NCBI RefSeq assembly: GCF_988242995.1
Contig: NZ_OZ547043.1
DNA length: 64,000 nucleotides
Strand: one strand, 5' to 3'
Shown: positions 10,201 through 57,080 of the stretch, piece by piece
Numbering within the stretch: the first letter of the stretch is position 1
How the letters are laid out: every line of letters starts with the position of its first letter
The notes under the pieces: generated by a model
The model's input: only the letters and a program-made list of their open reading frames with translations
Database searches by the model: none
What the model was told of the DNA's origin: nothing
Position numbers and translations under genes: made by a program

Positions 10201-10270
10201 GAAACTTTTCCCAGATTATTGGCAGCAATATGCCAGGCCATATCACTATTACGGATTTGAATATGTTTCA

Positions 10271-11191: not shown

Positions 11192-11328
11192 TCCGTTCCT
11201 CATGGAGTTGTCGGTTCGTTTTAACGGTTGGTGATATCACTATAGATATTGATCATTAAGTTGATTAGACCCAAAATCATGATTAGACCTATCATTTAAA
11301 TGATTAATAGATTGTATGGAGATACTGA

Positions 11329-12228
11329 ATGAAGCGTGAAGAAATCGCTGATCTGATGGCGTTTGTCGTCGTTGCAGAGGAGCGTAGCTTCACTCGCGCA
11401 GCAGCCCGCCTGAGCATGGCGCAGTCAGCTTTAAGCCAGATAGTGCGCCGTATAGAAGAACGATTGGGATTGCGGCTTCTGACGCGAACCACGCGCAGCG
11501 TTGTACCCACTGAAGCGGGCGAGCATCTTTTGTCTGTTCTTGGCCCTATGTTGCATGACATAGATTCTGCCCTGACATCCCTGAGCGATCTGCAGAACCG
11601 CCCATCCGGGACAATACGTATTACTACTGTAGAACATGCAGCAAAAACGATATTGTTACCAGCTATGCGCACATTCCTGAAATCGCATCCTGAAATTGAT
11701 ATCCAGCTTACCATTGATTATGGTTTGACCGATGTCGTTTCTGAACGTTTTGATGCAGGCGTCCGTCTGGGTGGGGAGATGGATAAAGATATGATCGCCA
11801 TTCGAATCGGGCCAGATATACCAATGGCTATTGTTGGCTCACCGGATTATTTTTCTCGTCGAAGTGCTCCAACGTCAGTGTCACAATTAATAGATCATCA
11901 GGCAATTAATTTGTATCTTCCCACATCGGGTACAGCAAATCGCTGGAGATTAATACGCGGTGGACGTGAAGTTCGTGTTCGCATGGAAGGTCAGCTTTTA
12001 CTGAATACGATAGACCTGATCATTGATGCTGCAATTGATGGGCATGGATTGGCGTATCTACCTTATGATCAGGTTGAGCGGGCTATTAAAGAAAAAAAAC
12101 TGATACGTGTTTTGGATAAATTCACACCAGATTTACCCGGTTATCACCTGTACTATCCACACCGTCGACATGCTGGCTCGGCATTCTCATTATTTATAGA
12201 TAGGCTGAAGTATAAAGGTGCTGTTTAG
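11329..12228 (+). CDS. pgrR: LysR-family regulator of murein peptide degradation genes
   Basis: 299 aa with N-terminal LysR HTH (FVVVAEERSFTRAAARLSMAQSALSQ). Divergent from ycjY. Confidence 0.92.
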   Translation: MKREEIADLMAFVVVAEERSFTRAAARLSMAQSALSQIVRRIEERLGLRLLTRTTRSVVPTEAGEHLLSVLGPMLHDIDSALTSLSDLQNRPSGTIRITTVEHAAKTILLPAMRTFLKSHPEIDIQLTIDYGLTDVVSERFDAGVRLGGEMDKDMIAIRIGPDIPMAIVGSPDYFSRRSAPTSVSQLIDHQAINLYLPTSGTANRWRLIRGGREVRVRMEGQLLLNTIDLIIDAAIDGHGLAYLPYDQVERAIKEKKLIRVLDKFTPDLPGYHLYYPHRRHAGSAFSLFIDRLKYKGAV

Positions 12229-15810: not shown

Positions 15811-16761
15811 TTAATCGTCTTCTTCGTCATCCAGTTCAACGGGTGTCTGATACTGGTCAGGTTTAATGACCAGCAGGTCGCAGCGAAGATGATCAATCAC
15901 CTGTTCCGCCGTGTTGCCGAGGAATGCTGCTGAAATACCGGTGCGTCCGACCGTGCCCAGAACCACAATCCCCGCCTGTAAATGCTCCGCCAAATCAGGA
16001 ATCACCTCTTCTGGCAGACCTTTTTCTACGTGCGTCATGTTTTCATTAATGCCGAATTTCTGCCGCAGGGCTTTCATTGCCAGCAAATGTTGCCCACGAA
16101 TGGCATCGTTATAAACGCTCGGATCAAATTCCGGCAGTTCAATCGCGATATTAATTGGCGTTACCGGATAAGCGCCAACCAGATGAACTTCAGTATGGTT
16201 GACTTGTTCTGCCAGTTCGATCGTCTCTTTGACCAGTTTTTCATTGAGCGCATTATGGTACGGCTCTTCACTGGCGAGATTCACCGCCACCAGCGCCTTA
16301 CCCCCTTCCGGCCACGGCTGGTCTTTCACCATCCACACCGGGCTTGGGCATTTGCGTAACAGATGCCAGTCCGTTGGCGTAAAAATCACCGCTTCCAGAC
16401 GGTCATGTTGGTGCGCCATTTTTAGCACCAAATCGTGCCCGCCGCTGATCACTTCCTGAATGATGGCTTCGAAAGGACGGTTATGCCAGACCACTTTAAT
16501 TTCAATGGGAACGCCAGCATTGAGATAATATTTTGCCTGCTCGTGGATCCAGGCTGTACGCTGGCTGATGACGCCCTGACGCATAGCGGTACGTTCGTCC
16601 GGAGAGAGCAGGGTGGTCATTTCGTATGAGAAGTCATAGATCGGCAAAAAGGCTTTAATTTTGCCACCAATCCGTTGATGTAAATAAACAGCTCGCCGCA
16701 ATGCTGGTTGGTCGTCCTGGTTAGGATCGATAACAACGAGCATGTTCTGATACATAGCCAT
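15811..16761 (-). CDS. uspE: Universal stress protein E (tandem Usp domains)
   Basis: Internal start gives [25 protein letters not shown]... (316 aa). Confidence 0.94.
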
Positions 16762-16912
16762 ACAGGGTCTCCTTACAACAACTGTCAACGCAGTTTGTAA
16801 TTAAAAGATTAACCCATATCTGGTGAATGAAACAGTGATGAACCTTCTGCCAGATCAATAAATCAGAAAAATTTAATGATATGACAGAAGGATAGTGAGT
16901 TATGCGGAAAAA

Positions 16913-30138: not shown

Positions 30139-31374
30139 CTACGATAACCGCGCATTCAACATGGCTATCTGTTCGTCGTTCATGTCATCAATCCACATAC
30201 CGTAAATTTCATACACCATCTGCGCAGTTTCATGCCCCATTTGGCTGGCTATAAATGCCGGGTTCGCTCCTGCCGTCAACAGCCAGCAGGCAAAAGTATG
30301 CCGCGTATGGTACGGATTACGGCGGCGAATACCAGCACGTTTTACTGCTGCATTCCACCTTGCCCCCAAACTGCTTACCGAGTAATAAGGTTTTTGTTTT
30401 CCGTTACACACCCTGGGCATGAAAACAAAATGCAGTTTTTGCTTTTCGGTTCTGCCGTACTCCCGATGATAAAAGGTGATTTCGCTTTTGCGATGATGCC
30501 CGGTCAGTTTGTATTGCTCCTTCAGTGCTTCAAGAGCAGGCTGCAGTAGTGTTACTGTTCGGATCCCGGCATTTGTTTTTGGGGGACCGAACATATCAAG
30601 TATCGTCAGGTTTCTTCTGACATTCACTATTCCCTTTTCGAGATCCACATCCTCCCACGCCAGAGCTGCCAGTTCCCCGTGACGAAGTCCTGAGTAAACG
30701 GCAAATTTCCACAAGTTCTGGCTCTGTCCTTTTTCACTTTCCATTAATGCATTGAATTCTGTTTTAGATAACGGATCAGGCTTTATTCTGTTTCGCTGTA
30801 ATTTTTTTACTCCTTCAAATGGTTTGGTTGATATAAATCCCGACTGATACGCAAAACGCAACAGCGAACAGAGCAGGGCGATATAGTTATCAACTGTGCG
30901 CACGGTTCTTCCTTTTTTGTTGGATCTTGGATTATCCAGGTAAAGCGTTTCTCCATGCAGCAGTTCATTCCGGTAGTTTAAGATATCGCTATAACGAATA
31001 TGTGATATCGGGGTACTTTCACAAATTATTATTCTGAGTGTTTTTAATTGTGATTTCGTTTTCTTCATTGTGTTTGTTGTTAACTCTGTCTCTTTAATTT
31101 TTGTCCAGATATCACAAAGCTCTCCGAACGTTTTTATGACTCTCGTTGTCACCATTTTTGCCCCAGTGCTGGACTGGGGAAAACGTCTTAAATACTCAAA
31201 TTCACCGGAGTTTATTTCATGAACTATCAGCGCTCTTAAATTTCCGGCCTTTTTAATATTACTGTTTGTAATCTCCCAGCCTTTTAATGTTTCCCGACAT
31301 CGTTTTCCTCGAAACATGAACCAGATGCGAATGTATCTACCTCTAATCTCGACACCTGTTGGTAATTTAGACAT
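30139..31374 (-). CDS. intR: Rac-type tyrosine integrase
   Basis: 411 aa with C-terminal catalytic-domain motifs (HGELAALAWEDVD...HTRHTFA...MGHETAQMVYEIY). Confidence 0.95.
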   Translation of the reverse strand: MSKLPTGVEIRGRYIRIWFMFRGKRCRETLKGWEITNSNIKKAGNLRALIVHEINSGEFEYLRRFPQSSTGAKMVTTRVIKTFGELCDIWTKIKETELTTNTMKKTKSQLKTLRIIICESTPISHIRYSDILNYRNELLHGETLYLDNPRSNKKGRTVRTVDNYIALLCSLLRFAYQSGFISTKPFEGVKKLQRNRIKPDPLSKTEFNALMESEKGQSQNLWKFAVYSGLRHGELAALAWEDVDLEKGIVNVRRNLTILDMFGPPKTNAGIRTVTLLQPALEALKEQYKLTGHHRKSEITFYHREYGRTEKQKLHFVFMPRVCNGKQKPYYSVSSLGARWNAAVKRAGIRRRNPYHTRHTFACWLLTAGANPAFIASQMGHETAQMVYEIYGMWIDDMNDEQIAMLNARLS

Positions 31375-32122: not shown

Positions 32123-32932
32123 TTATTCCTCTGAATTATCGATTACACTGTATTCCCCGGTTAATACAGAGGAATCTGCAGGATCGATTGTCAGTGGTTC
32201 CTTTTCATCCATTGATACTGCACGCTGGATCTCAATTGATACGGGCAGATATTTGAACAGGCGACGAATAGCCGTTTTCTTTGCCATTTCTTCCCAGTGA
32301 GTTACCCACGGCCCGTTATTACCAGCTTTACTCAGGCTGCGCACCAGCTCAATCTGTTTGCGCGTCATAACTTCAAACTGAGTACCTCCGTCTTTCAGTC
32401 TTGCGACAGCATAGACGTGGGTAACCGGGGCATCTTCGTTTTCTCCCGGGCGGTGTATTAACTTTTCATCAAGGCCAAATTCGAAGCTAAACTCGTCACC
32501 TTCACGGACAACACGGGCTGACAGGCTGGCGATTTGACCAGAACGGCGAGCCAGATCAATCATGCCGCGATAGCCAATGATTAGCTGAACGTTCTTTTTA
32601 CCGCTCTTTTCGTTTTTATTACCAAAAGGCAGTAAATATGCATGACCGAGGGCGCTACCTGGCTCAAGTCCGAGCTGTGAACACTGTACGATCGCACTGA
32701 CAAAACTCATAGTGTCACAGTTTCCTAACGCCGGAACTTTACGAATTTCTGTAGTGGCGATACGGATCATACGTTCAGCCGTCATATGGCGTGGAAGAGC
32801 TGCTGCCAGTTGCTCTTTCATTGATGGCTGGTTAATAAAGCTAATCACGTCGCTATTTTTAACTGCTGCTGGTGCACGGTTTCCCTGAGTTTTTTGCAGA
32901 TCGGCTTTTGCGATTGGTGGTTGCTTAGTCAT
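32123..32932 (-). CDS. recT: RecT single-strand annealing protein
   Basis: [32 protein letters not shown]... (269 aa). Overlaps the recE stop. Confidence 0.96.
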
Positions 32933-35525
32933 TTGCATATTCCTTAGCCCAGCGGGGCAGTGATAATGTCTTAATAGCTGGCCATTCATCGGTATTCAGG
33001 CAGTCAGACAGGGTTCGCAGATTGCGGTGATATTCCTGTTGACCTGCCAGTTTTGCTTCTTCGCCCATCATGAAAATTTCAACCGGATAACGTCCGCATT
33101 CAATAGTTGTGCTGGCAACCAGAAAAACGAAAGTTGGCTGCACTCCAAACTGTGCTTCATAACCGTCACTGTAGAATGCATCCTGAACGTGATAGCGGTA
33201 GTCGTAATAAGCGGTTTTGAATCGTTGAATATCCGCCGTAGTTTTCACGTCCATGATCCAGTGAAATTCAGGGATAATTTTGTCCGGACGGCACCGACAC
33301 AAAATTCCTGTTTCAGGATCTTCCCAGTAAATTGATGATTCAGCGTGTCCGGCGCTTTCAACAAGCCATTGCCCCAGCGGCAAAGCCATAACGCTTTGAT
33401 ACATGAGTTCAATTTTCCGGCCTTCTTCCGCAGTGATAACCGTTTTTCCTGTGCTTGCGCATTCCATCAGAAACGCTTTCTCTTCTTCTTTTCCGGCGTT
33501 TGTACGGCGGTTAAATTCAGGTGCTACGATAAAGCGGTTACTGAATTCTTCCGGTTCAAGTACCCGGCAGTGGAAAGCAGTTCCTAAATCGAGCGTTTTT
33601 GTCTTTGTGGTGTCCACGGGGGCATTTTTACGCCACAAATATAGTGCCGGAGTATCAGCAATGTCATCGAGCTGAGACTTACTGATACCGGGACCCGCGT
33701 GGTAATTCTCATTCGAAATTCCGTAATAAATACCTGGCTCTATGTCTTCTACGATTACGGGATCTGCGACTTCGCCAGTTTCATCACTGCAATCGTGATG
33801 CGGATCGCTGCCAGCATTCTCATTGTGCGGATGTTCAGCGCCTTCCATTTCCTCCGGATCATTTTCCTTAGCTTCAACCTGACTCTCTTCATCGAATGTT
33901 TCCTGGTATGTTGCGTCGCCCATCACCGCACCACAGTCAGGGCAGTTATCCCCGCCAGTCTGGCCGCAGGCATTGCAGGCTATTTCCGGTTCCTGTTGCA
34001 CTACTGGCTCAGGTTGATTCATATCTGGGCTGGTTTTTTCCGTTTCTGGCTGGTTCTGGTACACACAATCGCGAGTCTGGATCCCCTTTACCCATTTCGG
34101 ATCGTTCGGGTCGCTAATTCCGTCAACAAATTCACCACGTGATGCAGCAAGCAATTTATCGGCATCGACAGGATTTTTTGATGGAATGTTTTTCCGGGCT
34201 TCATGGAGTTCTGCCCACAGTTCCTGATATTTCGCATCAACAGAATTTACCTGTGACTGAGCATCCAGCGGCTGCGTGTCCTGATGATGTTCAGTTGCGT
34301 CCGGTTCCATTGTTTCAGCCTCTCCCTGTTCAACTGCCGTTGTTCCAGATGGTTGCGGTTTTTCTTCATCATCCTGTTTTCCTTCTTCTGTTACTCGCTG
34401 CGGCATCGGGGCAGAGGAGCGACCGCAGGCAATATCCACGATTTCCGGATCAGGGTTGGCATGATCGGTTTCAGTCAGTACTTTGTTCAGATATTCAGTG
34501 ACGTGCGCGGGGATGACCTCGATCCCAATTGGTGCTTCTTTTACGGACGCAACCACGATGGCGCGGGAATAATCCAGCCCGCCAGGCATGGTGATGAATT
34601 TGTCGCGGAAAACAGAAAAGGGCGGTTTATTTTCAGCGATAATTTCCTCAATGCGTTTAGCGTGTGCCGGATGAAGGTTATAGATGTCCAGATCCATTGA
34701 ACGGGCCAGTACGCCAGTGGCTACGTCGCGCGCCAGTGACGTCAGATCGTGTACGAAACCTTCGCCGCGATCGGTGAGGTTTCCGCCGCCAGCATTAGCA
34801 CCGGAAGCCGTGCGAGTGATGTGTGAAACACGATTACCCTTCATCCACTCTTTTGTCAGCAGTCCTCGATCGGTGTAGTCAGCGTTCAGGTATGCTTCGA
34901 AAAAAGCAGTTATCAGTCCCAGGTTTGAATTACCAGGATTAGGGAAAACTTTGTCAGTGTCACGAACCAGTTTGTGGAGTTCGCGAATTTCCAGCGGGTC
35001 GAGCAGGCTGGTTTTGTGGGAAACAGCCAGGGCAGTAACAGCCGGTAGTTCTTCAGCCCGAGCAATGTGTAATGCCTGGAGTCCGTCGCGTGAAACGTGC
35101 GTTACCGGTTTTTCGCTGCCGTGTTGAGCAAGCCAACGAATGGGCAGTTCCTGGCCAGAAATTGGGAGTAGCATATTCTCCTCAATCTCAGTCATGTCTT
35201 CGCCGTTGACGTTGGTATTGCCTTGATAGTGAGCGTTGTCTGGTGCTGCTCCCGGTTTTAGTTCCCATGTCATGGAGTCTTTGCTGAGTTGATAGCGTTC
35301 ACTCCAGGTAAAATCGATCTCACCTTCAGTGGGCAGGTCATTAACGACAGGAAAATTCGTGGCAACAGCTTTAAAATAGCTGCTCAGTTTTTTACCTGAC
35401 TTAACGATCAGGTAGTCCAGAGTGGCACAGGTCGATTCAAAATCGTTGCTTGCCCACAGGACGACGTCAGGTTCACCGGATGATTTTTTCGCTTTCCGTA
35501 ACAGGAAGAGTGGTTTTGTGCTCAT
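32925..35525 (-). CDS. recE: RecE exonuclease VIII
   Basis: 866-aa ORF with an acidic/Pro-rich middle and a C-terminal exonuclease domain. Forms the recET pair. Confidence 0.95.
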
Positions 35526-35624: not shown

Positions 35625-36337
35625 TTGTGCACAGAAAACCCCCAGCTAGGCTGGGGGTTCCGGAAAGCTTTCAGCTTTGAGCCAGTTATTAAAACCCCTT
35701 TTGATTTGTTAAAACACTTTGCGGTCTGGCAACTGCAAGTGTCAAACAAGAAATCAAAAGGGGGTCCCAATGGGGAACGAAAAGAGCTTAGCGCACACCC
35801 GATGGAACTGTAAATATCACATAGTTTTTGCGCCAAAATACCGAAGACAGGTGTTCTACAGAGAGAAGCGTAGAGCAATAGGCAGTATTTTGAGAAAGCT
35901 GTGTGAGTGGAAAAGCGTACGGATTCTGGAAGCTGAATGCTGTGCAGATTATATCCATATGCTTGTGGAGATCCCGCCCAAAATGAGCGTATCCGGCTTT
36001 ATGGGATATCTGAAAGGGAAAAGCAGTCTGATGCTTTACGAGCAGTTTGGTGATTTGAAATTCAAATACAGGAACAGGGAGTTCTGGTGCAGAGGGTACT
36101 ACGTCGATACAGTGGGTAAGAACACGGCGAAGATACAGGATTACATAAAGCACCAGCTTGAAGAGGATAAAATGGGAGAGCAGTTATCGATTCCCTATCC
36201 GGGCAGCCCGTTTACGGGCCGTAAGTAACGAAGTTGGATGCAAATGTCAGATCGTGTGCGCCTGTTAGGGCGCGGCTGGTAAGAGAGCCTTATAGGCGCA
36301 TTTGAAAAACCTCCGGCTATGCCGGAGGATATTTATT
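35625..36337 (+). mobile_element. IS200-type insertion sequence (IS200/IS605 family), copy 1
   Basis: 713-bp block repeated at 48039-48751 (constant offset 12414; all overlapping ORF-track translations identical). Left-end hairpin AACCCCCAGC-TAG-GCTGGGGGTT (35637-35659), right-end hairpin CCTCCGGC-TAT-GCCGGAGG. No flanking target duplication. Confidence 0.93.
35770..36228 (+). CDS. tnpA: IS200 Y1 (HUH) transposase TnpA
   Basis: MGNEKSLAHTRWNCKYHIVFAPKYRRQVFY...ADYIHMLVEIPPK...YY (152 aa), with HUH-like HMLV and catalytic Tyr context. Confidence 0.93.
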   Translation: MGNEKSLAHTRWNCKYHIVFAPKYRRQVFYREKRRAIGSILRKLCEWKSVRILEAECCADYIHMLVEIPPKMSVSGFMGYLKGKSSLMLYEQFGDLKFKYRNREFWCRGYYVDTVGKNTAKIQDYIKHQLEEDKMGEQLSIPYPGSPFTGRK

Positions 36338-42835: not shown

Positions 42836-42855
42836 AAAGCCTCCTAGGAGGCTTT
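42836..42855. terminator. Perfect 20-nt palindrome; bidirectional terminator at the cassette boundary
   Basis: AAAGCCTCCTAGGAGGCTTT has an 8-bp stem and a CTAG loop. It overlaps the MTase stop codon (TAG). A T-rich tract follows on the minus strand. Confidence 0.7.
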
Positions 42856-43884
42856 GATTATATTAAGCAAATGTTTTCCAATCGTTTCAGACATCTTCGG
42901 AGGGACCGCATTTCCTATTTGACGAGCCCGAGATTGCAAAGAACCAATAAATTTATAATCCAAAGGAAATGTTTGTAGACACGCTGCTTCACGAACCGAT
43001 ATTGCTCGATTTTGTGTTGGATGTCCAAAACGTCCATTTGAATAGCTAATACAACGAGTTGTTAGTCCGCTGGCTGGTTTGTCCCAACTCAAACGTCCAT
43101 ATACGTCTGTATGCCCTTTATGGTTACGATGGCATTCTAAAATCAATTCATCTGGCCAAAATTCTCGACTTCCACCTTCAGGAGTGCATTTTATTCTACG
43201 TAAATTAAGCTCTGATAAGCGTGCAGCTTCATGATCAGGAATACTATTATGCTTTTCTCCTGCTTCTATCTTCGGTAAATTAGCGATCCAGTCCTTTACT
43301 GTTGAATAGGGAGTATTTCCAACCCCATGTGTAGGAGAAGGCAATGCGACATAAAAATCCTTGGATGCAATGAGCACTAATCTTTCTCGCGTCTGTGGTA
43401 CACCGTACCACGCAGCTGGCATTACTTTATAATCTACACTATATCCCTTTGATGAAAGCATTTCTAAAAACATCATGAATGTTCCTTCATTTTTGTTAAA
43501 CTTTTGCATTCCTGGCACGTTTTCAACAAAAATAAAATCAGGCATATAATGCTCTACAAAGCGACTGAATTCCTTTAATAGATCTAATCGTGGATCATCA
43601 TTTTTCTTATTTGAGTTTTGCTTAGAGTACGGTTGACAAGGCGCACATCCTGAAAAAAGAATGTAATCATTACGATGTTTTTTTACTAACTTGTTTATGG
43701 CATTGTTGTCGATTAACCTAATGTCCGAGTTAATAAAAGCAGCCTGCGGGAAATTTGCACGAAATGAACTGGCTGCATCAACGTCGAAATCGAGGCCAAA
43801 AACAATATCCATTCCAGCTTGATGGAAACCTTGGCTGGTTCCACCACAACCGGAAAAGAAGTCAAACACTTTGATTTTTTTCAT
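42844..43884 (-). CDS. DNA (cytosine-5) methyltransferase
   Basis: All canonical C5-MTase motifs occur in order: I FDFFSGCGG, IV GCAPCQPYS, VI FVENVPG, VIII QTRERLVLIA, IX REAACLQTFP, X GNAVPP. The best start is ATG 43884 with GAGGG upstream. The track ORF uses GTG 43908. Confidence 0.9.
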   Translation of the reverse strand: MKKIKVFDFFSGCGGTSQGFHQAGMDIVFGLDFDVDAASSFRANFPQAAFINSDIRLIDNNAINKLVKKHRNDYILFSGCAPCQPYSKQNSNKKNDDPRLDLLKEFSRFVEHYMPDFIFVENVPGMQKFNKNEGTFMMFLEMLSSKGYSVDYKVMPAAWYGVPQTRERLVLIASKDFYVALPSPTHGVGNTPYSTVKDWIANLPKIEAGEKHNSIPDHEAARLSELNLRRIKCTPEGGSREFWPDELILECHRNHKGHTDVYGRLSWDKPASGLTTRCISYSNGRFGHPTQNRAISVREAACLQTFPLDYKFIGSLQSRARQIGNAVPPKMSETIGKHLLNIIKAS

Positions 43885-43907
43885 TTTTCCCTCTGCATCC
43901 AGAATCA

Positions 43908-45737
43908 CTACCTAATGATACCACGGTCAAGAGCCTGAGTAATTATTTTTCTTATTTTTATAAATTCAGGCAATTCATTTTTAAGTCTTGCGGTCATCAT
44001 TTGTTGGAGGCAAAAAATTTCCTCTGCATTTACTTCTTCTTTATCATACAGGTGTTGCGCTAATAATCTTATTTGATTCTTATACAGTTCTGGATCATTA
44101 GAACTCCAGGTCTGTGAATCAATTATTTCTTTTTCACTTGGCGTAATTGCCTTTTCAATGAGTAATTGTTCGGGAGTATCAAATGGTAAATACTTCACTT
44201 TATTGAATGCATACTCAAGCACTTGCCTTTTGAGTCTATTAGATTCTTGTTCATTTTTTTTGCCATTACTACCACTGGCATTGATAATTAACTCGCAACC
44301 ATAATATTTGCACATTGTATTAACTAAATCAGCATCAGCAATTTCACTAATTCTTACTGGTTTTATTTTTTTGTTTTTATCACCATCAAGTAAAAACAAA
44401 ATATCATTGCGTTCTACCACAGCGTAACTGGGAAGATGCTTGCTTAAAATGGTCTCCGAACCACCTGGTATATAACTTACACTAAATGATAAGCTTAATC
44501 TTTCATCATTTTTAATCGCTTTATCTATAATTGCTTTAGCTAATTTATCTTCTACAATTATTGTTTTCTTGTTAATATCATGCCCTAGCTCTATAAAAGC
44601 TTCATCCGGTGCTATATTTTGAACTATTTTAGCTGTTTCACTCTCTTCATCAAAAACAAATAATTTAATGGCATCTTTGGGAAGAGTGTTCACAATAACA
44701 GGAGAATGGGTTGATATTACCACTTGATGTTTTTTCTGCTCAACAATAGAGTACAGAACATCCATCATCCTTTTTTGTGCACCAGGGTGAAGTGAAACTT
44801 CTGGTTCGTCAAGAAGAATTAATGAATTAGGTTTGGCCGAATAAATATTGAGTATTAGTGAAACTATTGCAAATTCACCACTTCCAGCAAACGCTTCTGT
44901 ATAGTTCAACTTATCAGTTGAAAGTAAAGCGGTTCCTCCTCTGGTTCCAAATAACCGATGCTCAAGAAATTTAATGACTTTATATTTTTTCCCTAATATA
45001 AATGAGACGTGCTCAACTAGTTCTGGCGCCAAGGTTATATTTTTAACAATGGTTTCCGCCCCCCAGAGTCTTAAATTACTTAGCTTTTCATCAAAAGCTT
45101 TCTTTATATATTTAGATTTGCTTCTGATATAGTCTTGCTTTGTAATTAATACACCACTCTTCTTCTTTCTTAATTTAAAATCAGAGTGATACATACATCT
45201 ATCAAATGCACTTATTTCCGATCTGAAATCTAGGAAAACCAATCCCTTCTTGATTTTTTTCCATCTGGTTGCATTACTATTAGCACCCAGATCATCCGAA
45301 ATACTCTCCATGTTATCACCAACAGATGGTCGACTTGTTTCCCAATAATCGATTGTTTTCTTGGTAGCATTGATACGTGCTTGGAGTATTTCAACTAAAC
45401 GGCCATCAGCATTTTTATATCCATATATATATCTAGGTTTAAGAGAACTGCCATCAGCAAGTTTTAGGTCAGGAAACTCATCTGTTTCAGTTGTGAACCA
45501 ATAACGAGTTATATTTTTACCATGTGGGCAACCAAATAGCGCTTTGATAACAGAACTTTTATTAGTTCCATTTTTTCCTACTAAAGCCGTTATAGGGAAC
45601 TGAAAATCGATCCTTGCATTCTGCTCTATATTTTTAAAGTATGGAAAACGGATATGTTGTATGAATGGTTCAAATTCACCGTTTTTTAACGCGCACTGGA
45701 GTGTTCGAATTTTGCTCTTGTATGCGGAAGTGCTCAT
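43908..45737 (-). CDS. OLD-like ABC-type ATPase with C-terminal Toprim/DUF4435-like region (609 aa)
   Basis: Walker A-like VGKNGTNKSS (aa 53-62), SGE signature (286-288), Walker B LILLDEPE then SLHP (306-318), H-loop STHSP (342-346), then IIVED (393-397) and LLDGD (449-453). Very AT-rich. Confidence 0.8.
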   Translation of the reverse strand: MSTSAYKSKIRTLQCALKNGEFEPFIQHIRFPYFKNIEQNARIDFQFPITALVGKNGTNKSSVIKALFGCPHGKNITRYWFTTETDEFPDLKLADGSSLKPRYIYGYKNADGRLVEILQARINATKKTIDYWETSRPSVGDNMESISDDLGANSNATRWKKIKKGLVFLDFRSEISAFDRCMYHSDFKLRKKKSGVLITKQDYIRSKSKYIKKAFDEKLSNLRLWGAETIVKNITLAPELVEHVSFILGKKYKVIKFLEHRLFGTRGGTALLSTDKLNYTEAFAGSGEFAIVSLILNIYSAKPNSLILLDEPEVSLHPGAQKRMMDVLYSIVEQKKHQVVISTHSPVIVNTLPKDAIKLFVFDEESETAKIVQNIAPDEAFIELGHDINKKTIIVEDKLAKAIIDKAIKNDERLSLSFSVSYIPGGSETILSKHLPSYAVVERNDILFLLDGDKNKKIKPVRISEIADADLVNTMCKYYGCELIINASGSNGKKNEQESNRLKRQVLEYAFNKVKYLPFDTPEQLLIEKAITPSEKEIIDSQTWSSNDPELYKNQIRLLAQHLYDKEEVNAEEIFCLQQMMTARLKNELPEFIKIRKIITQALDRGIIR

Positions 45738-48040: not shown

Positions 48041-48751
48041 GTGCACAGAAAACCCCCAGCTAGGCTGGGGGTTCCGGAAAGCTTTCAGCTTTGAGCCAGT
48101 TATTAAAACCCCTTTTGATTTGTTAAAACACTTTGCGGTCTGGCAACTGCAAGTGTCAAACAAGAAATCAAAAGGGGGTCCCAATGGGGAACGAAAAGAG
48201 CTTAGCGCACACCCGATGGAACTGTAAATATCACATAGTTTTTGCGCCAAAATACCGAAGACAGGTGTTCTACAGAGAGAAGCGTAGAGCAATAGGCAGT
48301 ATTTTGAGAAAGCTGTGTGAGTGGAAAAGCGTACGGATTCTGGAAGCTGAATGCTGTGCAGATTATATCCATATGCTTGTGGAGATCCCGCCCAAAATGA
48401 GCGTATCCGGCTTTATGGGATATCTGAAAGGGAAAAGCAGTCTGATGCTTTACGAGCAGTTTGGTGATTTGAAATTCAAATACAGGAACAGGGAGTTCTG
48501 GTGCAGAGGGTACTACGTCGATACAGTGGGTAAGAACACGGCGAAGATACAGGATTACATAAAGCACCAGCTTGAAGAGGATAAAATGGGAGAGCAGTTA
48601 TCGATTCCCTATCCGGGCAGCCCGTTTACGGGCCGTAAGTAACGAAGTTGGATGCAAATGTCAGATCGTGTGCGCCTGTTAGGGCGCGGCTGGTAAGAGA
48701 GCCTTATAGGCGCATTTGAAAAACCTCCGGCTATGCCGGAGGATATTTATT
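48039..48751 (+). mobile_element. IS200-type insertion sequence, copy 2
   Basis: Identical block to 35625-36337, in the same orientation. Inserted between the Q/tR' region and the lysis region. Confidence 0.93.
48184..48642 (+). CDS. tnpA: IS200 Y1 transposase TnpA (copy 2)
   Basis: Same 152-aa product as copy 1. Confidence 0.93.
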   Translation: MGNEKSLAHTRWNCKYHIVFAPKYRRQVFYREKRRAIGSILRKLCEWKSVRILEAECCADYIHMLVEIPPKMSVSGFMGYLKGKSSLMLYEQFGDLKFKYRNREFWCRGYYVDTVGKNTAKIQDYIKHQLEEDKMGEQLSIPYPGSPFTGRK

Positions 48752-51064: not shown

Positions 51065-51201
51065 AATCTTAACTACAATATGATTCATTTTGATGATTGT
51101 TTCATAAGGAACAGTGAAGTAAGATCTAAGAGGAGTTAAATTTTATACAGTATAATCATAATATTGCAGCAAGGTGGTTATAATTGAAAGAATATTTAGA
51201 T

Positions 51202-52659
51202 ATGAATACATCTCATGTAAGAGTTGTTACTCATATGTGTGGGTTCCTGGTTTGGCTCTATAGTCTTTCAATGTTGCCACCAATGGTTGTAGCATTGTTT
51301 TATAAAGAAAAAAGCCTGTTTGTTTTCTTTATAACTTTCGTTATATTTTTTTGCATTGGTGGCGGAGCGTGGTATACAACTAAGAAATCTGGCATTCAAT
51401 TACGTACCCGTGATGGGTTTATTATAATTGTAATGTTTTGGATTTTGTTTTCTGTTATTAGTGCATTCCCTTTATGGATTGACTCAGAACTTAATTTAAC
51501 GTTCATTGATGCTCTGTTTGAAGGGGTTTCTGGAATAACAACAACAGGAGCAACTGTAATTGATGATGTTAGTTCATTACCTCGGGCATATTTGTACTAT
51601 CGGTCACAGTTAAATTTTATAGGTGGTTTAGGAGTTATTGTTCTGGCGGTTGCTGTATTGCCATTATTGGGTATTGGTGGTGCAAAGCTTTATCAGTCAG
51701 AAATGCCGGGGCCATTTAAGGATGACAAACTCACTCCCCGCCTGGCCGATACGTCACGGACACTGTGGATAACTTATTCTTTATTAGGTATTGCTTGTAT
51801 TGTCTGTTATAGACTTGCAGGAATGCCTTTGTTTGATGCTATTTGTCACGGGATTTCCACAGTTTCGCTTGGTGGTTTCTCAACTCATAGCGAGAGTATC
51901 GGATATTTTAATAACTATTTGGTTGAGCTGGTGGCTGGTTCTTTTTCCCTGCTATCGGCTTTCAACTTCACTCTTTGGTATATTGTTATTAGCAGGAAAA
52001 CGATAAAACCTTTAATCAGAGATATTGAACTTCGTTTCTTTCTGTTAATAGCCTTAGGTGTGATCATTGTTACCTCTTTCCAGGTCTGGCATATAGGTAT
52101 GTATGACTTGCATGGAAGTTTTATTCATTCGTTTTTTCTTGCCAGCTCCATGCTCACTGATAATGGTTTAGCTACGCAGGATTATGCAAGTTGGCCCACG
52201 CACACGATAGTGTTTTTGCTGTTGTCAAGTTTCTTTGGGGGATGTATAGGTTCAACTTGTGGTGGAATTAAGTCACTTCGATTTCTTATACTTTTCAAAC
52301 AAAGCAAACACGAGATAAATCAGCTTTCTCATCCCAGAGCGTTGTTGAGTGTAAATGTAGGAGGGAAGATAGTTACAGATCGTGTAATGAGGTCTGTATG
52401 GAGTTTCTTTTTTCTTTATACTCTCTTCACGGTGTTTTTTATACTGGTGTTAAATGGTATGGGATATGATTTTCTTACATCATTTGCAACAGTGGCTGCA
52501 TGCATTAATAATATGGGATTAGGTTTTGGGGCTACTGCATCGTCATTCGGAGTGCTTAATGACATTGCAAAATGTTTAATGTGCATAGCTATGATTCTTG
52601 GTCGCCTTGAAATTTATCCTGTTATTATATTGTTTTCAGGTTTTTTTTGGCGCTCCTAA
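51202..52659 (+). CDS. trkG: TrkG K+ uptake protein (prophage moron)
   Basis: MNTSHVRVVTHMCGFLVWLYSLSMLPPMVVALFYKEK... (485 aa from the internal ATG). Polytopic, AT-rich. Confidence 0.94.
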   Translation: MNTSHVRVVTHMCGFLVWLYSLSMLPPMVVALFYKEKSLFVFFITFVIFFCIGGGAWYTTKKSGIQLRTRDGFIIIVMFWILFSVISAFPLWIDSELNLTFIDALFEGVSGITTTGATVIDDVSSLPRAYLYYRSQLNFIGGLGVIVLAVAVLPLLGIGGAKLYQSEMPGPFKDDKLTPRLADTSRTLWITYSLLGIACIVCYRLAGMPLFDAICHGISTVSLGGFSTHSESIGYFNNYLVELVAGSFSLLSAFNFTLWYIVISRKTIKPLIRDIELRFFLLIALGVIIVTSFQVWHIGMYDLHGSFIHSFFLASSMLTDNGLATQDYASWPTHTIVFLLLSSFFGGCIGSTCGGIKSLRFLILFKQSKHEINQLSHPRALLSVNVGGKIVTDRVMRSVWSFFFLYTLFTVFFILVLNGMGYDFLTSFATVAACINNMGLGFGATASSFGVLNDIAKCLMCIAMILGRLEIYPVIILFSGFFWRS

Positions 52660-52796
52660 TATATGGCTGATTTATAATTGTGAGTTTAATATTATGTTGA
52701 CTCACTCATTGATCCAATACCTAACTTTACCAGCAACACCTCCGTCCCCAGTAGCACTGGCTGCTGGGGTGCGTTTTATTCATAAAGCAAGGCTGT

Positions 52797-53588
52797 ATGA
52801 GCGAGAAATTAAAGATAGTCTATCGCCCATTACAAGAATTGTCACCGTATGCGCACAACGCCAGGACGCACAGTACTGAGCAGGTGGCACAACTGGTAGA
52901 AAGTATTAAGCAATTCGGCTGGACTAATCCGGTGCTGATTGACGAAAAGGGCGAAATTATTGCGGGTCACGGTCGTGTTATGGCGGCTGAAATGCTCAAA
53001 ATGGATTCTGTTCCGGTCATTGTTCTGTCTGGCCTGACGGATGAGCAGAAAAAGGCGTACCGCCTGGCAGATAATCGCCTGCCGATGAATGCTGGCTGGG
53101 ATGAAGATCTGTTGCGGATGGAGCTGTCGGACCTAATCAATGCTGATTTTGATGTCTCCCTGACAGGCTTCATCCCGACAGAAATTGATGAACTGTTGAC
53201 GGATGTTTTGCCCGGTACAGGAAATGAGGAGGAGCCGTATACGACGAAAATTGATACGCCTGTTTATGAGCCGTCGGGCGGTAAACCGGATATCAGTGAA
53301 CTGTACGACGATACGAAAACTCAGGAGCTGATCAGCCGGATACGTTCGGCGTCCCTTGAGCCTGATATTGAGAAATTCCTCCTGTGTGCGGCAGAACGTC
53401 ACACGGTGTTTAATTTCAGCAGAATTGCGGACTATTACGCTCACGCCCCCTCTGAAATTCAGTGTTTTTTCGAGGAGTCGGCGCTGGTGATCATTGATTA
53501 TCAGCAGGCTATTGAAAATGGATTTGTCCGGATGACGCAGCGCATGGTGGAGATCATGCATGGTGGTGAGGAGGAGGAATATGCGTGA
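52797..53588 (+). CDS. ynaK: ParB/Srx-like N-terminal-domain protein, full-length YnaK-type (263 aa)
   Basis: MSEKLKIVYRPLQELSPYAHNARTHSTEQVAQLVESIKQFGWTNPVLIDEKGEIIAGHGRVMAA...AYRLADNRL has ParB-like GHGR and ADN motifs. I recall K-12 YnaK as only the N-terminal ~87 aa. Confidence 0.85.
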   Translation: MSEKLKIVYRPLQELSPYAHNARTHSTEQVAQLVESIKQFGWTNPVLIDEKGEIIAGHGRVMAAEMLKMDSVPVIVLSGLTDEQKKAYRLADNRLPMNAGWDEDLLRMELSDLINADFDVSLTGFIPTEIDELLTDVLPGTGNEEEPYTTKIDTPVYEPSGGKPDISELYDDTKTQELISRIRSASLEPDIEKFLLCAAERHTVFNFSRIADYYAHAPSEIQCFFEESALVIIDYQQAIENGFVRMTQRMVEIMHGGEEEEYA

Positions 53589-54513
53589 TGATTTTTGCGC
53601 CTTTATTCTGACTCACGGGCGACCGGACAAAGTTCTGACTTACCGGACGTTGCGTCGTGCTGGCTATACCGGGAAAATTTTTATCGTTGTTGATGATGAA
53701 GATAAGACACGGCATCAGTACATGGCTGAATTTGGTGAACAGGTGCTGGTGTTTTCCAAAGCCGATATCGCCAGTCGTTTTGACGAAGCCGATAATTTCT
53801 GTGACCGCCGCTCAATTTTTTACGCCCGTAATGCCTGTTTCGACCTGGCAAAACTGGTCGGGTGTAAATACTTCATTCAGCTCGATGATGATTATCACGA
53901 GTTCCAGTTTCGGGTGGATCGCAACTATGACCAGGCCTATTTTCCGATAAGGAAACTGGATGCGATCCTTTCTGAAATGCTGGCGTACTACGAATCAATA
54001 CCTGCTCTTTCCATCGCTATGTCGCAGGGCGGGGATTTTCTTGGTGACAATGGCGGCCATGCTTCGTGGGTGAAACGCAAGGCAATGAACAGCTTTATCT
54101 GTTCGGTTGATCGACCGTTCTCATTCATGGGGCGCATTAACGAGGATGTGAATACGTACACGAATCTCGGTCGCTGTGGTGAATTGTTTATGACGATCGG
54201 TGCTGTCCAGTTAGGGCAGAAACAGACGCAGAAAAACAGCGGCGGAATGACCGAGCTGTATCTGGATTCCGGAACCTACGTTAAAAGTTTTTACTCCGTC
54301 ATGTATGCGCCGTCGTGCGTAAAAATTTCACTGATGGGTGCCAGCCATAAACGCATTCACCATCAGGTCACCTGGAACAACGCTGCAGTAAAAATCCTTC
54401 ACGAAAAATACAGGAAGAAGACACCCTGCATATCAATGGGGGTGACAAATGATTCCGTATTCGAAAGTCGAGTCTCTGGCAGCGTGCCGGATGACTGCAC
54501 AACAAATCGCTGA
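53581..54513 (+). CDS. Hypothetical protein with GT-A glycosyltransferase-like signatures (310 aa)
   Basis: GGAGGAGG lies before ATG 53581, which overlaps the ynaK-like stop by 8 nt. Signatures are an N-terminal FILTHGRPDKVLTYRTLRRAG strand-helix, VVDDED, the DxD-like QLDDDYHEF, and RINEDVNTY. The fold assignment is an inference from these motifs only. Confidence 0.6.
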   Translation: MRDDFCAFILTHGRPDKVLTYRTLRRAGYTGKIFIVVDDEDKTRHQYMAEFGEQVLVFSKADIASRFDEADNFCDRRSIFYARNACFDLAKLVGCKYFIQLDDDYHEFQFRVDRNYDQAYFPIRKLDAILSEMLAYYESIPALSIAMSQGGDFLGDNGGHASWVKRKAMNSFICSVDRPFSFMGRINEDVNTYTNLGRCGELFMTIGAVQLGQKQTQKNSGGMTELYLDSGTYVKSFYSVMYAPSCVKISLMGASHKRIHHQVTWNNAAVKILHEKYRKKTPCISMGVTNDSVFESRVSGSVPDDCTTNR

Positions 54514-54700
54514 CGTTCTGGATGTTGATCTGAACCGACTGAAAGAAAATCGGGAAGCAATGACAGATTTTTATGCGGCCATCCGTAAGGGCAGAGCGAA
54601 AGGTGAAGCCGAGTTACGAGCGGCATTGTTTAAGCTTGCCAGAAAAGGGGATGCCTTTGCTCTGCGCGAACTACTCAGGGTGGATAAAAATCAGGACTAA
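54449..54700 (+). CDS. Small HTH protein upstream of terminase (83 aa)
   Basis: MIPYSKVESLAACRMTAQQIADVLDVDLNRLKENREAM... has an HTH-like segment. The 5' end overlaps the previous ORF by 65 nt, so the start is uncertain. Confidence 0.5.
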   Translation: MIPYSKVESLAACRMTAQQIADVLDVDLNRLKENREAMTDFYAAIRKGRAKGEAELRAALFKLARKGDAFALRELLRVDKNQD

Positions 54701-54703
54701 CTG

Positions 54704-55798
54704 ATGAGCAGACCGGACTGGGGGGCGTTGCAGCAGGAGTATATTGCTGAATACACCCGCTCCGGTATATCTCCGGTGGCATGGTGTGAAGCAAGGGGAC
54801 TGAATTACGCAACAGCCCGTCGTTACATCAAAAAAACTCCGAAAAATGCGCAGACAGAAATGTGCAAAACTGCGCAAAAAAGTGCGCAGAAAAAATCTGC
54901 GCAGACTGCACAAAAGCGGAACGAAAAATCTCAGGAAAAAAAGCCAGTATTCGATGCGGGCCTGAATGAGGGCGACGCGGAGGAATTTTCGTTCTGTCCC
55001 GATGAATTCGGCATTTCTGACCAGCAGGCTAAGTTTGCGATGCTTGTTGCTCAGGGTAAAAAGCCGACAGAGGCGTACCGACTAGCCGGTTATGAGGGGC
55101 AAGGTGCGACAGCTAACAGCAACGCCAGTCGTATGCTTAGAAATGCCAGGGTTTTTCGCGCTATCAGCTACTTCCGCAATCAGTACCAGAAACGCTATAC
55201 CGCAGACCTGGATTTACTAGTGAGTCAGTTGATGGCTATTGTCCTGGCCGACCCCAATCAGCTTGCACAATTTCGCCGTGTTAACTGCCGTTATTGCTGG
55301 GGCGAGAATCATCTCTACCAGTGGCGCGATATAGCAGAATTCGACAAGGCAGCGGCGCAGGCTTCCAGAGATGGCAAACCCGAACCGGAATATGGAGGCC
55401 TCGGCTTTGTTGATAACGCCATACCCAATCCGGACTGCCCGAAGTGCTGCGGTGAGGGAACGGGACAGCTTTATATGGCTGATACCACTCTGCTTGATGG
55501 GGATGCGCGGCAATTATATGCAGGGGCAAAATTCGGAAAATTCGGCGTTGAGATCCTGCTGGAGGATAAGGCTGCCGCCCGGCGTGAATTGTTGCGTTTG
55601 TTTTCTGCTGGCGGGGCTTTATGTGCAGATAAACGGCTACAGGAACTGGAAATTGAACGGCGCAGAATGGAAAACCAGAAGCTGCGCAAAGAGATCGAAA
55701 CGGTGGAAGATAATGAACATCCCCAGCCTGTGGCGATCAATATTAATGTGGTTGATGCCAGAGTAAGGAGTGATGAAGATGATCTCTCCGACGCTTAA
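54704..55798 (+). CDS. Terminase small subunit (Terminase_2-like core with N-terminal HTH extension)
   Basis: 364 aa. The core QQAKFAMLVAQGKKPTEAYRLAGYEGQGATANSNASRMLRNARVFRAI is typical of small terminases. Confidence 0.8.
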   Translation: MSRPDWGALQQEYIAEYTRSGISPVAWCEARGLNYATARRYIKKTPKNAQTEMCKTAQKSAQKKSAQTAQKRNEKSQEKKPVFDAGLNEGDAEEFSFCPDEFGISDQQAKFAMLVAQGKKPTEAYRLAGYEGQGATANSNASRMLRNARVFRAISYFRNQYQKRYTADLDLLVSQLMAIVLADPNQLAQFRRVNCRYCWGENHLYQWRDIAEFDKAAAQASRDGKPEPEYGGLGFVDNAIPNPDCPKCCGEGTGQLYMADTTLLDGDARQLYAGAKFGKFGVEILLEDKAAARRELLRLFSAGGALCADKRLQELEIERRRMENQKLRKEIETVEDNEHPQPVAININVVDARVRSDEDDLSDA

Positions 55799-57080
55799 TG
55801 TGCCTCAGGCGCGATTTCTTTCAATGCCCCATAAATTTAAAGCCTATATTGCTGGTTTTGGCTCGGGCAAAACATGGGTTGGGTGTAGCGGCATATGCAA
55901 GGGGATTTGGGAGCATCCAGGTATAAATCAGGGATATTTTGCGCCAACGTATCCCCAAATTCGCGATATTTTTTACCCTACAGTGGAAGAAGTTGCTGCT
56001 GACTGGGGATTGAACGTAAAAATTAATGAGGGAAATAAAGAGGTTCACTTTTATTACGGACGCCAGTATCGGGGAACCACTATCTGCAGATCGATGGAGA
56101 AGCCACAAACGATCGTCGGTTTCAAAATTGGTAATGCGTTGGTGGATGAACTGGACATTTTGCCGAAGGAAAAAGCCAGAACGGCGTGGCGCAAGATAAT
56201 TGCACGTATGCGTTATAAGATTGATGGACTTCGCAACGGTATTGACGTTACAACCACGCCGGAAGGATTCAAATTTGTCTACGAGCAGTTTGTTAAAGCC
56301 GTGCGTGAAAAAACAGAGCTGGCCTCACTGTATGGTCTGGTGCAGGCATCTACTTTCGATAATGAAAAGAACCTGCCAGCAGATTACATTCCTTCGCTTC
56401 TTGAATCATACCCTCCAGAGCTGATTAAAGCCTATCTTCGAGGACAGTTTACTAACCTGACAAGTGGTACTGTTTACCATCAGTTTGACCGGAAACTGAA
56501 TAATTGCGAAGAAGTGGAGCAGCCAGGGGAGCCGATTTATATTGGGATGGATTTTAACGTTGGAAAGATGGCGGGAATCGTCCATGTGCTGCGTTTGGGG
56601 CTTCCATGTGCGGTAACTGAAATCATCAATGCCTACGATACGCCGGATATGATCCGCATCATTAAAGAACGCTTCTGGCTGTATGATGGGAATGATTACC
56701 GGAAAGTGAGGGAAATTTATATTTATCCAGATGCTTCCGGGGATTCCAGAAAATCAAGTAACGCAAGTACGACGGATATAGCCCAGCTTAAGCAGGCTGG
56801 TTTTAACGTTGTGGTGAACAGCTCGAACCCGCCAGTAAAAGATCGCGTTAACTCAATGAATGCAATGTTCTGCAATGCCAATGGTGAGCGTCGCTATAAA
56901 GTTAATGTGAAGCGTTGCCCGTTATATGCCGAATCTCTGGAGCAACAGGTCTGGGATGAGAAGGGGGAGCCTGATAAAAAATCTGGCAATGATCACCCGA
57001 ATGATGCCGGAGGTTATTTCATCGTTAAGCAATTCCCTATTGTCAAACCGACCGGAAGAGTCACATCACTTCGGATTTAA
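55779..57080 (+). CDS. Terminase large subunit
   Basis: About 433 aa with Walker A-like AGFGSGKTW. AAGGAG lies 8 nt before ATG 55779 (alternative starts at 55770 and 55773). Position fits. Confidence 0.8.
   Translation: MISPTLNVPQARFLSMPHKFKAYIAGFGSGKTWVGCSGICKGIWEHPGINQGYFAPTYPQIRDIFYPTVEEVAADWGLNVKINEGNKEVHFYYGRQYRGTTICRSMEKPQTIVGFKIGNALVDELDILPKEKARTAWRKIIARMRYKIDGLRNGIDVTTTPEGFKFVYEQFVKAVREKTELASLYGLVQASTFDNEKNLPADYIPSLLESYPPELIKAYLRGQFTNLTSGTVYHQFDRKLNNCEEVEQPGEPIYIGMDFNVGKMAGIVHVLRLGLPCAVTEIINAYDTPDMIRIIKERFWLYDGNDYRKVREIYIYPDASGDSRKSSNASTTDIAQLKQAGFNVVVNSSNPPVKDRVNSMNAMFCNANGERRYKVNVKRCPLYAESLEQQVWDEKGEPDKKSGNDHPNDAGGYFIVKQFPIVKPTGRVTSLRI

Follow-up and report, generated by a model that had tools for sequence, protein, structure and literature searches.

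Phage glycosyltransferases of the TAGT family (Pfam PF20691, 'TET-associated glycosyltransferase'), which includes the T2/T6 beta-glucosyl-HMC-alpha-glucosyltransferase, have been characterised as enzymes that transfer a sugar either onto 5-hydroxymethylcytosine (5hmC), produced by a methyltransferase and a TET-type dioxygenase, or, in T2 and T6, onto the glucose of glucosyl-5hmC; those linked to 5mYOX dioxygenases attach sugars to 5hmC in DNA, and an R...DDD...ED(Y/F) signature has been reported for phage DNA glycosyltransferases of the GT-A (nucleotide-diphospho-sugar transferase) fold. Furthermore, one subclass of phage thymine dioxygenases requires a ParB homologue on double-stranded DNA (dsDNA) (O'Toole et al., PNAS 2026). 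That ParB consists of a nucleotide-binding domain (NBD), a short helical segment, a disordered linker of ~50 aa and a C-terminal domain (CTD), without a DNA-binding domain; both end domains are needed, the linker is only partly needed, conserved NTP-contact residues are dispensable in the assay, and models place the dioxygenase between the NBD and the CTD. Fusions of the ParB fold to DNA methyltransferases are, in turn, enriched in prophages (Kaljevic et al., PNAS 2025). Here we report that positions 52797-54513 of a 64,000-nt stretch of DNA (the window, to which all coordinates refer) encode, within an Escherichia coli prophage, a 263-aa ParB-like protein and a 310-aa TAGT that form an obligate cassette, and we read this cassette, with about even confidence, as a late-expressed, ParB-assisted module for post-replicative DNA glycosylation.

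The call of the downstream protein as a GT-A glycosyltransferase, which in the initial annotation leaned on short motifs, is carried by family, fold and catalytic residues alike. The 310-aa protein matches PF20691 over residues 8-222 (E 3.4e-35, 122.3 bits against a cut-off of 27.5) and PHROG 842 (E 6e-104), its homologues bear the same precomputed domain, and comparison of its model with predicted viral structures returns TAGT-domain proteins as the top matches (E 1e-21). Both the fold and the profile thus identify a GT-A transferase, and the non-transferase fold that would have overturned the assignment did not emerge; a profile search of PDB sequences gave no solved relative, matches there coming from fold comparison only. 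The catalytic core spans about residues 1-184 and is followed by a basic region (185-288, isoelectric point (pI) 9.5) and by a 22-residue tail (289-310) that is specific to the enterobacterial lineage and overlaps the next small gene. Along the chain, FILTHGRPDKVL occupies residues 8-19, VVDDED residues 36-41, QLDDDYHEF residues 100-108 and RINEDV residues 185-190. In an alignment of 31 homologues of 60-82% identity, R14 (53620-53622), the D102-D103-D104 stretch that forms the DxD metal/nucleotide-sugar motif (53884-53892), N187 and D189 are invariant and E188 is nearly so. R14 and E188-D189 (54142-54147) are TAGT signature residues, and the protein fits the R...DDD...ED(Y/F) signature with V190, not Y/F, as the residue after ED. 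The pair, and every feature of it given here by coordinates, lies on the plus strand.

With the T2/T6 alpha-glucosyltransferase the window TAGT shares the PF20691 profile, the GT-A fold, the DxD and ED motifs and a phage origin, but in the T-even phages glucosyl-5hmC from a dedicated pre-replicative pathway receives a second glucose, whereas the window prophage has neither an hmC pathway nor a first glycosyltransferase. The T-even enzymes are also too distant to be retrieved by tblastn at 1e-5, and the window clade is set apart from them by its coupled ParB partner. The 5mYOX/TET-associated phage GT-A enzymes (Burke 2021; Pyle et al. 2024), together with the trypanosome base-J glucosyltransferase, have the same fold and active-site signature, and the phage systems show a post-replicative logic and epimerase, second glycosyltransferase and O-methyltransferase additions that recur around this cassette. 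Unlike them, the window TAGT has no adjacent dioxygenase or linked C5-methyltransferase and carries EDV in place of EDY/F. PGAP and UniRef name it 'GREB1-related protein', which records homology only: GREB1 is an animal O-linked N-acetylglucosamine (O-GlcNAc) transferase that contains a TAGT-like domain; this eukaryotic protein is very large, acts on the oestrogen receptor and has its catalytic domain family in common with the window enzyme.

Both open reading frames (ORFs), their 8-nt overlap, the upstream Shine-Dalgarno sequence and all motifs quoted in the initial annotation are present where it had placed them. The ParB-like ORF (52797-53588, 263 aa) and the TAGT ORF (53581-54513, 310 aa, from the ATG at 53581 to the stop at 54513) overlap in ATGCGTGA (53581-53588), an arrangement that provides for translational coupling, and the Shine-Dalgarno sequence of the TAGT gene, GGAGGAGG (53570-53577), lies inside the ParB coding sequence. 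The longest listed form of the TAGT ORF starts at 53560 and would encode 317 aa; we place the start at 53581 because of the Shine-Dalgarno sequence, the PGAP call in identical DNA (L002 20882-21814, equivalent to window 53581-54513) and the N-termini of homologues, which begin MRDDFCAFIL. To determine how constant the pairing is, we built hidden Markov models for both proteins and ran them on 89 fetched loci, about half of which are near-identical E. coli copies. In 88 of the 89 the TAGT is directly preceded by a full-length ParB, matched in both halves, whose stop codon overlaps the TAGT start, in keeping with the coupled expression proposed initially, and the single exception (L088) has its ParB 3 kb upstream of a TAGT-methyltransferase fusion (10001-11719). 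The ParB-TAGT pair is therefore an obligate cassette. Overlaps of 4-29 nt are also found in phages c5, phi jlb1, HHTV-2 and NTR1 and in a Porphyromonas phage, and metagenomic loci overlap as well. No ParB-TAGT fusion occurs among the 150 best 50%-cluster representatives, where the N-terminal extensions are P-loop kinase-like or S-adenosylmethionine (SAM)-dependent methyltransferase domains.

The cassette is both abundant and widely dispersed. Of 5,426 complete E. coli genomes, 1,605 contain the 2-kb segment and 866 (about one in six) have it at essentially full length; it is also present in ten deposited phages, and the trkG-ParB-TAGT-terminase block recurs in prophages whose early regions and sites of integration differ, such as icd in strain EC96. 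A search of 1.8 billion representative proteins with the TAGT profile retrieves 1,499 clusters at 50% identity, of which 716 reach E<=1e-30. The gene order ParB, TAGT, terminase is seen repeatedly in phages whose hosts are Proteobacteria, Firmicutes, Actinobacteria, Bacteroidetes or a haloarchaeon, with same-order homologues at 27-47% identity in phi jlb1 (host Lactobacillus gasseri), c5 (a virulent phage of L. delbrueckii), Nocardia phage NTR1, Porphyromonas phages and the haloarchaeal virus HHTV-2; the TAGT itself retains 43-47% identity between the E. coli prophage, the Nocardia and Lactobacillus phages and the haloarchaeal virus. Outside the cassette arrangement, Vibrio jumbo phages of ~191 kb (L090, phage pv27, 11887-12888) encode a TAGT of 44-45% identity without an adjacent ParB; its neighbours are replication genes (primase, helicases, exonucleases), with a 'partition protein' gene found 11 kb upstream.

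The window pair heads the packaging operon, with the terminase genes downstream as first described, and this synteny had suggested that the ParB might be a nuclease or DNA-end factor aiding terminase in the manner of HK97-like HNH proteins, the transferase being incidental. The position directly upstream of terminase is strikingly conserved, the pair forms ORF1 and ORF2 immediately after cos in c5, and older annotations speak of a 'ParB-like nuclease'. The adjoining terminases, however, belong to at least five unrelated types (Terminase_6, TerL_ATPase, lambda-type GpA, Terminase_3, Terminase_2/4) that include both cos and pac packaging, which makes a specific terminase partnership unlikely, and the portal and capsid families beside the cassette differ between loci as well. 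Neither protein gives an HNH hit in a Pfam search and no other nuclease motif is found in the ParB-like protein, separate HNH genes are present in L003, L005 and L094, the HHTV-2 pair is separated from terminase by ~3 kb of other genes, and the Vibrio TAGT sits among replication genes. A packaging role would also leave the intact, invariant glycosyltransferase active site unexplained, and the nearest functional analogue of the ParB is an enzyme activator; we regard an accessory nuclease as very improbable.

Additions to the cassette in individual loci resemble the tailoring functions of DNA-glycan hypermodification clusters, from which epimerases, second glycosyltransferases and methyltransferase-type activities are known. 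A gene for an NAD-dependent sugar epimerase/dehydratase (3418-4380) separates TAGT from terminase in L100, and a second TAGT is found in tandem in L098 (9136-10861) and L101 (539-2270) and as a fusion in P0264 and P0273. TAGT is fused to a class I SAM methyltransferase in L088, P0248, P0256, P0282 and P0267 and to a carbohydrate-type sulfotransferase in P0286, and bears an N-terminal P-loop kinase-like domain in P0266, P0287 and P0298. Since these additions match known tailoring activities, a real glycan is likely to be built. Separately from its ParB-TAGT pair, metagenomic phage L003 carries two Glycos_transf_2 genes after the capsid gene (15837-16894), an arrangement that recalls virion-glycosylating mycobacteriophages.

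The N-terminal ParB/Srx domain recognised in the 263-aa protein at the outset is borne out by PF02195 (ParB_N, E 9e-7), by a full-length match to PHROG 620 'ParB-like partition protein' (E 1e-90) and by Foldseek matches of the AlphaFold2 (AF2) model to CTP/CDP-bound ParB, Noc, PadC, KorB, Srx and SerK (E 5e-6 for CDP-/CTP-bound ParB and Noc). Residues 1-100 (52797-53096; AF2 pLDDT about 70-90) form the NBD, which retains box I-like N21/R23, box II-like G57-H-G-R60 (the GHGR motif, residues 57-60) and box III-like D92-N93, the latter within AYRLADNRL (87-95); N21, G57 and N93 are invariant even in homologues at 25-52% identity, and R23 and R60 are mostly retained. An acidic helix-helix segment follows (101-136, 53097-53204; WD..L..EL...FD..LTGF...EID.LL), modelled as helices over residues 103-134. 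Residues 3-141 match PHROG 498 'DNA methyltransferase' (E 9e-51) and residues 10-144 match PADLOC MTase_II PDLC03229 (E 1.5e-38), and a Pfam search found no methyltransferase domain in the 263-aa protein: by sequence homology, its first 141 residues are the N-terminal module that is also found in prophage ParB-N6/N4 DNA methyltransferase fusions. In those fusions the catalytic domain is part of the same chain and transfers a methyl group, whereas here a separate, translationally coupled enzyme is predicted to transfer a sugar and the ParB has a CTD of its own. Phages thus repeatedly join a ParB module to a DNA-modifying enzyme or place it next to one.

The conserved NTP-contact residues, together with the diverse NTPs bound by the ParB/Srx fold, some members of which are kinases such as SerK, raise the question of whether the acceptor could be RNA (at the 2'-OH), a nucleotide or an immune signalling molecule presented by the NTP-binding domain, the cassette serving as an anti-defence or metabolic device. 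The fusion class with a P-loop kinase-like domain and the lack of a known DNA acceptor are compatible with such a role, but it has no precedent in the TAGT family, late timing with the packaging genes would be odd for countering abortive-infection signalling, and the TAGT has no PADLOC or defence-related matches. We consider it improbable.

The C-terminal half, described as unrecognised in the initial annotation, resolves into a conserved linker motif and a helical CTD that always travels with TAGT. The motif, PYTxKIxxPxYEPxGxxP (residues 147-164, 53235-53288), lies within a disordered linker (137-166; AF2 pLDDT <50) and has Y148, T149, K151, P155, Y157, P159 and P164 as invariant positions in the homologue alignment; it is kept from enterobacterial prophages to Lactobacillus and Nocardia phages and the haloarchaeal virus (13 of 14 homologues at 25-52% identity) and is degenerate only in the Porphyromonas phage. 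To our knowledge the motif has not been described before, and we consider it a candidate docking peptide for TAGT or a candidate sugar acceptor. The CTD (167-263, 53295-53585; FLLxAAERHTVFNF..IADYY...Q.LFE.SALVIID..AIE.GF) has R201 and D234 invariant in divergent homologues and matches no Pfam family even at E<=1. It is modelled as helical over 166-255 at low to moderate confidence (pLDDT <50 over 230-263), and the Foldseek matches are driven by the N-domain. The protein is strongly acidic (pI 4.5, net charge -25), as is every homologue (pI about 4.5).

Although the ParB_N match and labels such as 'chromosome (plasmid) partitioning protein' would suggest a plasmid or prophage segregation protein, that role is effectively refuted by gene context and domain content: no parA is found in the neighbourhood (window, L001 and L002), a Pfam search gives no helix-turn-helix (HTH) hit even at E<=1, the partition-type TIGR00180 model scores 38.1 bits against a cut-off of 58.45, the prophage is integrated, and the gene is always coupled to a glycosyltransferase.

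The linker motif invites another explanation, namely that TAGT glycosylates a protein, most economically the linker of its own ParB (Y148, T149, Y157) in a glycogenin- or GREB1-like manner, with the modified ParB as the functional product, e.g., an acidic DNA mimic or a packaged anti-defence factor. ParB is the sole protein that always accompanies TAGT, its disordered linker holds a short motif with invariant Tyr, Thr and Pro residues that E. coli phages share with an archaeal virus, there is no evident acceptor in DNA, and the TAGT relative GREB1 O-GlcNAcylates a protein. On the other hand, every phage enzyme of the TAGT family that has been characterised to date uses a DNA-linked acceptor, the ParB layout fits a proven enzyme activator whose linker is only partly required, the GT-A likeness to glycogenin is generic to the fold, and a docking peptide would equally yield a conserved linear motif. 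We judge protein glycosylation unlikely, though it is the foremost of the rival explanations.

By layout alone, the pair is comparable to 5mYOX176/ParB176, in which an orphan phage ParB of the same architecture likewise stands beside a DNA-modifying enzyme and near terminase genes. The NBD with NTP-contact residues and the HTH-less layout are common to both, with the CTD of the window protein modelled at low confidence, but there is no adjoining 5mYOX dioxygenase: the putative client of the window ParB is a glycosyltransferase, and its dependence on ParB is suggested by analogy.

A further element of the initial annotation, the implied decoration of hydroxymethylated bases, found no support. 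We found no homologue of TET/5mYOX, dCMP/dUMP hydroxymethylase or thymidylate synthase in the window prophage or the L001/L002 E. coli prophages, in ten neighbourhoods from genomes or metagenomes for which Pfam labels were precomputed, or in three complete genomes, those of c5 (31.8 kb), phi jlb1 (38.3 kb) and HHTV-2, these being annotation-based negatives for which no scan with phage-specific 5mYOX profiles was made. Nor is a C5-methyltransferase consistently linked to the cassette across the prophages, neighbourhoods and genomes checked. Because neither dioxygenase nor hydroxymethylase occurs in the places examined, the classical route, in which the sugar is placed on a hydroxymethyl-pyrimidine, is not supported.

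That route would then call for a divergent dioxygenase missed elsewhere in the phage, or for a 5hmU/5hmC acceptor supplied by some hosts or by co-infecting elements. It would accord with the known activity of the family, with the thousands of 5mYOX-like sequences that lack TET/JBP annotation and with the finding that glycosyltransferases, ParBs and terminases are the commonest neighbours of 5mYOX genes (both O'Toole et al.); in addition, the window prophage does encode a C5-cytosine methyltransferase (42844-43908, minus strand). However, c5 and phi jlb1 (38 kb) have neither an unassigned ORF of fitting size nor such an annotation, nearly every ORF of 90 aa or more in the early region of the window prophage has another Pfam assignment, with the remaining few (106-189 aa) too short for a dioxygenase, and the ParB-dependent 5mYOX clusters are described as tied to kinases and amino-acid transferases, not to glycosyltransferases. 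We therefore rank the classical route slightly below self-glycosylation of the ParB, as another unlikely explanation.

The C5-methyltransferase was rejected as a feeder for TAGT, being minus-strand cargo next to an OLD-like ATPase with no dioxygenase, and it is further ruled out by identical cassettes in prophages that have no such enzyme (L001, L002). Its gene comes immediately after that of a 608-aa OLD-like ABC-ATPase/Toprim protein (43908-45737, minus strand; PADLOC HEC-04, ATPase-Toprim_I-B; AriA/PtuA/GajA-like), stop abutting start. This pair (42844-45737) sits between the modules for replication and Q and is a possible defence unit or one resembling restriction-modification.

We propose that the 310-aa TAGT would be an active nucleotide-sugar-dependent GT-A glycosyltransferase, most characterised members of its family being glycosylators of DNA bases, and that the acidic 263-aa ParB would serve as its dedicated partner, neither a partition protein nor a nuclease. 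By analogy with the ParB-dependent dioxygenases, a ParB dimer, made up of an NTP-binding N-domain and a C-terminal domain of dimerisation type, may hold or activate TAGT on dsDNA; linker peptide 147-164 could dock the transferase, while the basic C-terminal region of TAGT could touch the DNA. Translational coupling would deliver both proteins in fixed proportion from the late transcript that also carries terminase, and, because the pair is made together with terminase, replicated concatemers would be glycosylated before or during packaging, probably sparsely or at particular sequences. Progeny DNA would then reach the next host already modified against restriction or other DNA-targeting defences. 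The acceptor would be a canonical DNA feature or something so far unrecognised rather than a phage-made hydroxymethyl-pyrimidine, and we favour a universal acceptor such as DNA over a phage structural protein because TAGT is conserved while the terminase, portal and capsid families of its host phages differ.

Two systems offer precedents for this logic, both with catalytic folds and chemistry unrelated to TAGT: the ParB-like NTPase DpdB is needed by the DNA base-exchanging enzyme DpdA, and the late-expressed Mom of phage Mu modifies a canonical base to evade restriction. More tentatively, the sugar may be placed directly on canonical DNA, at an exocyclic amine, a ring nitrogen, a phosphate or a DNA end, or else a glycosylated ParB may act on DNA or on defence. 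Several observations weigh against DNA glycosylation by the cassette. No acceptor is evident, a hydroxymethyl source being absent everywhere examined, and we know of no case in which canonical DNA bases are O-glycosylated; the ParB lacks a DNA-binding domain and is strongly acidic; and the TAGT relative GREB1 glycosylates a protein. Moreover, the ParB-linked clade is known from sequence, context and predicted structures alone, and the AF2 models of the two proteins have mean pLDDT values of 67 and 65, with the TAGT acceptor region poorly resolved. On balance, the general idea of a virion-DNA modification module, as first put forward, remains the best reading, at the even confidence given above.

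The genes themselves are annotated and the glycosyltransferase-ParB-terminase neighbourhood has been noted in passing in earlier papers, so that this is not a new family. New are the recognition of ParB-TAGT as a self-contained cassette found in two domains of life without a dioxygenase in the genomes and neighbourhoods examined, and the conserved linker motif of the cassette ParB. Solitary TAGTs are a recognised open problem: they occur, with undefined function, in 288 of 753 glycosyltransferase-bearing phage genomes in a 2026 survey, and about 65% of ~25,000 glycosyltransferase contigs in a metavirome study of phage DNA glycosyltransferases had no 5mYOX or ThyS neighbour, that study setting aside contigs without a hydroxymethyl-base enzyme. 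A large and highly conserved part of this set is the obligate ParB-TAGT pair. Our literature search on ynaK, the L. delbrueckii phages c5/LL-Ku and HHTV-2 returned nothing on DNA modification or on these genes.

By analogy, ParB-TAGT may represent a second class of DNA-modifying enzymes that depend on a ParB, and because ParB homologues activate phage thymine dioxygenases the pair provides a natural second test of ParB as a general loader or activator of DNA-modifying enzymes. The 866 complete E. coli genomes with an intact cassette and the deposited inducible Rac-like phages make for a tractable example. Should a precursor-independent sugar or a glycosylated ParB prove true, a widespread modification system of temperate phages, in bacteria and archaea, would have been missed by nucleoside surveys of lytic phages; should the sugar be placed directly on canonical DNA, TAGT would be the first activator-dependent DNA glycosyltransferase that needs no hydroxymethyl precursor.

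The 263-aa ParB is the full-length form of K-12 YnaK. The remark in the initial annotation that K-12 keeps an ~87-aa YnaK fragment and ydaY at this place is correct in that trkG, ynaK (87 aa) and ydaY are all present, but ydaY is not a glycosyltransferase remnant: in intact prophages it is the gene after the tail-tube gene, and the TAGT, terminase, portal and head genes are deleted entirely in K-12. PGAP labels the intact ParB gene 'ynaK, incomplete, missing C-terminus' in L001 (20098-20355, equivalent to window 52797-53054), where the DNA is 100% identical; this label is an artefact of naming after the 87-aa K-12 fragment, and 'pseudogene' counts are therefore unreliable here. We also found many E. 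coli proteins (P0193-P0210, P0216, P0227) in which the first ~62-63% of this ParB, at 98-100% identity, is joined to fragments of late genes (Lom, terminase, NlpC/P60, tail fibre), which suggests either a recurrent deletion endpoint near codon 165 or assembly or gene-calling artefacts.

The Rac-type lambdoid prophage that carries the cassette fills the window from ~30.1 kb onward and includes an integrase gene (30139-31374, minus strand), recT/recE (32123-35525, minus strand), sieB, ydaS/ydaT/ydaU/ydaV-like genes, a Q-like antiterminator and lysis genes. Directly before the pair lies a trkG moron (51184-52659), followed by a terminator-like GC-rich hairpin with a T-run (52746-52769, plus strand; 10-bp stem with 7 GC pairs, tail TGCGTTTTAT) that ends 27 nt ahead of the ParB start and is presumably read through by Q-antiterminated late transcription. 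A promoter scan gave no more promoter-like sites near the pair than expected from shuffled sequence and identified no promoter dedicated to it. The 3' end of the TAGT gene is overlapped by a small plus-strand ORF (54491-54700, 69 aa, in the PGAP call; 54449-54700, 83 aa, from the ATG at 54449) that covers its last 23-65 nt and matches only the middle of small-terminase PHROG 309 (E 8e-23). The small (54704-55798) and large (55770-57080) terminase subunits follow on the plus strand, recognised by Pfam PF03592, PF03237 and PF17289 across the two, and then portal and head genes. The 364-aa small terminase subunit downstream of the small ORF has an N-terminus weakly resembling an IS66 TnpA-type HTH.

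Between the lysis genes and the gene for ParB there is a moron site, occupied by trkG in the window; in a Yersinia enterocolitica prophage (L096 2180-3332) it carries genes that encode a heat-labile-enterotoxin-A/Scabin-like ADP-ribosyltransferase together with an LT-IIB subunit. Finally, the window prophage contains two 169-aa IS200-type Y1 transposase ORFs with identical Pfam scores (35719-36228 and 48133-48642, both plus strand), one in the early-left region and the other between Q and the lysis genes.

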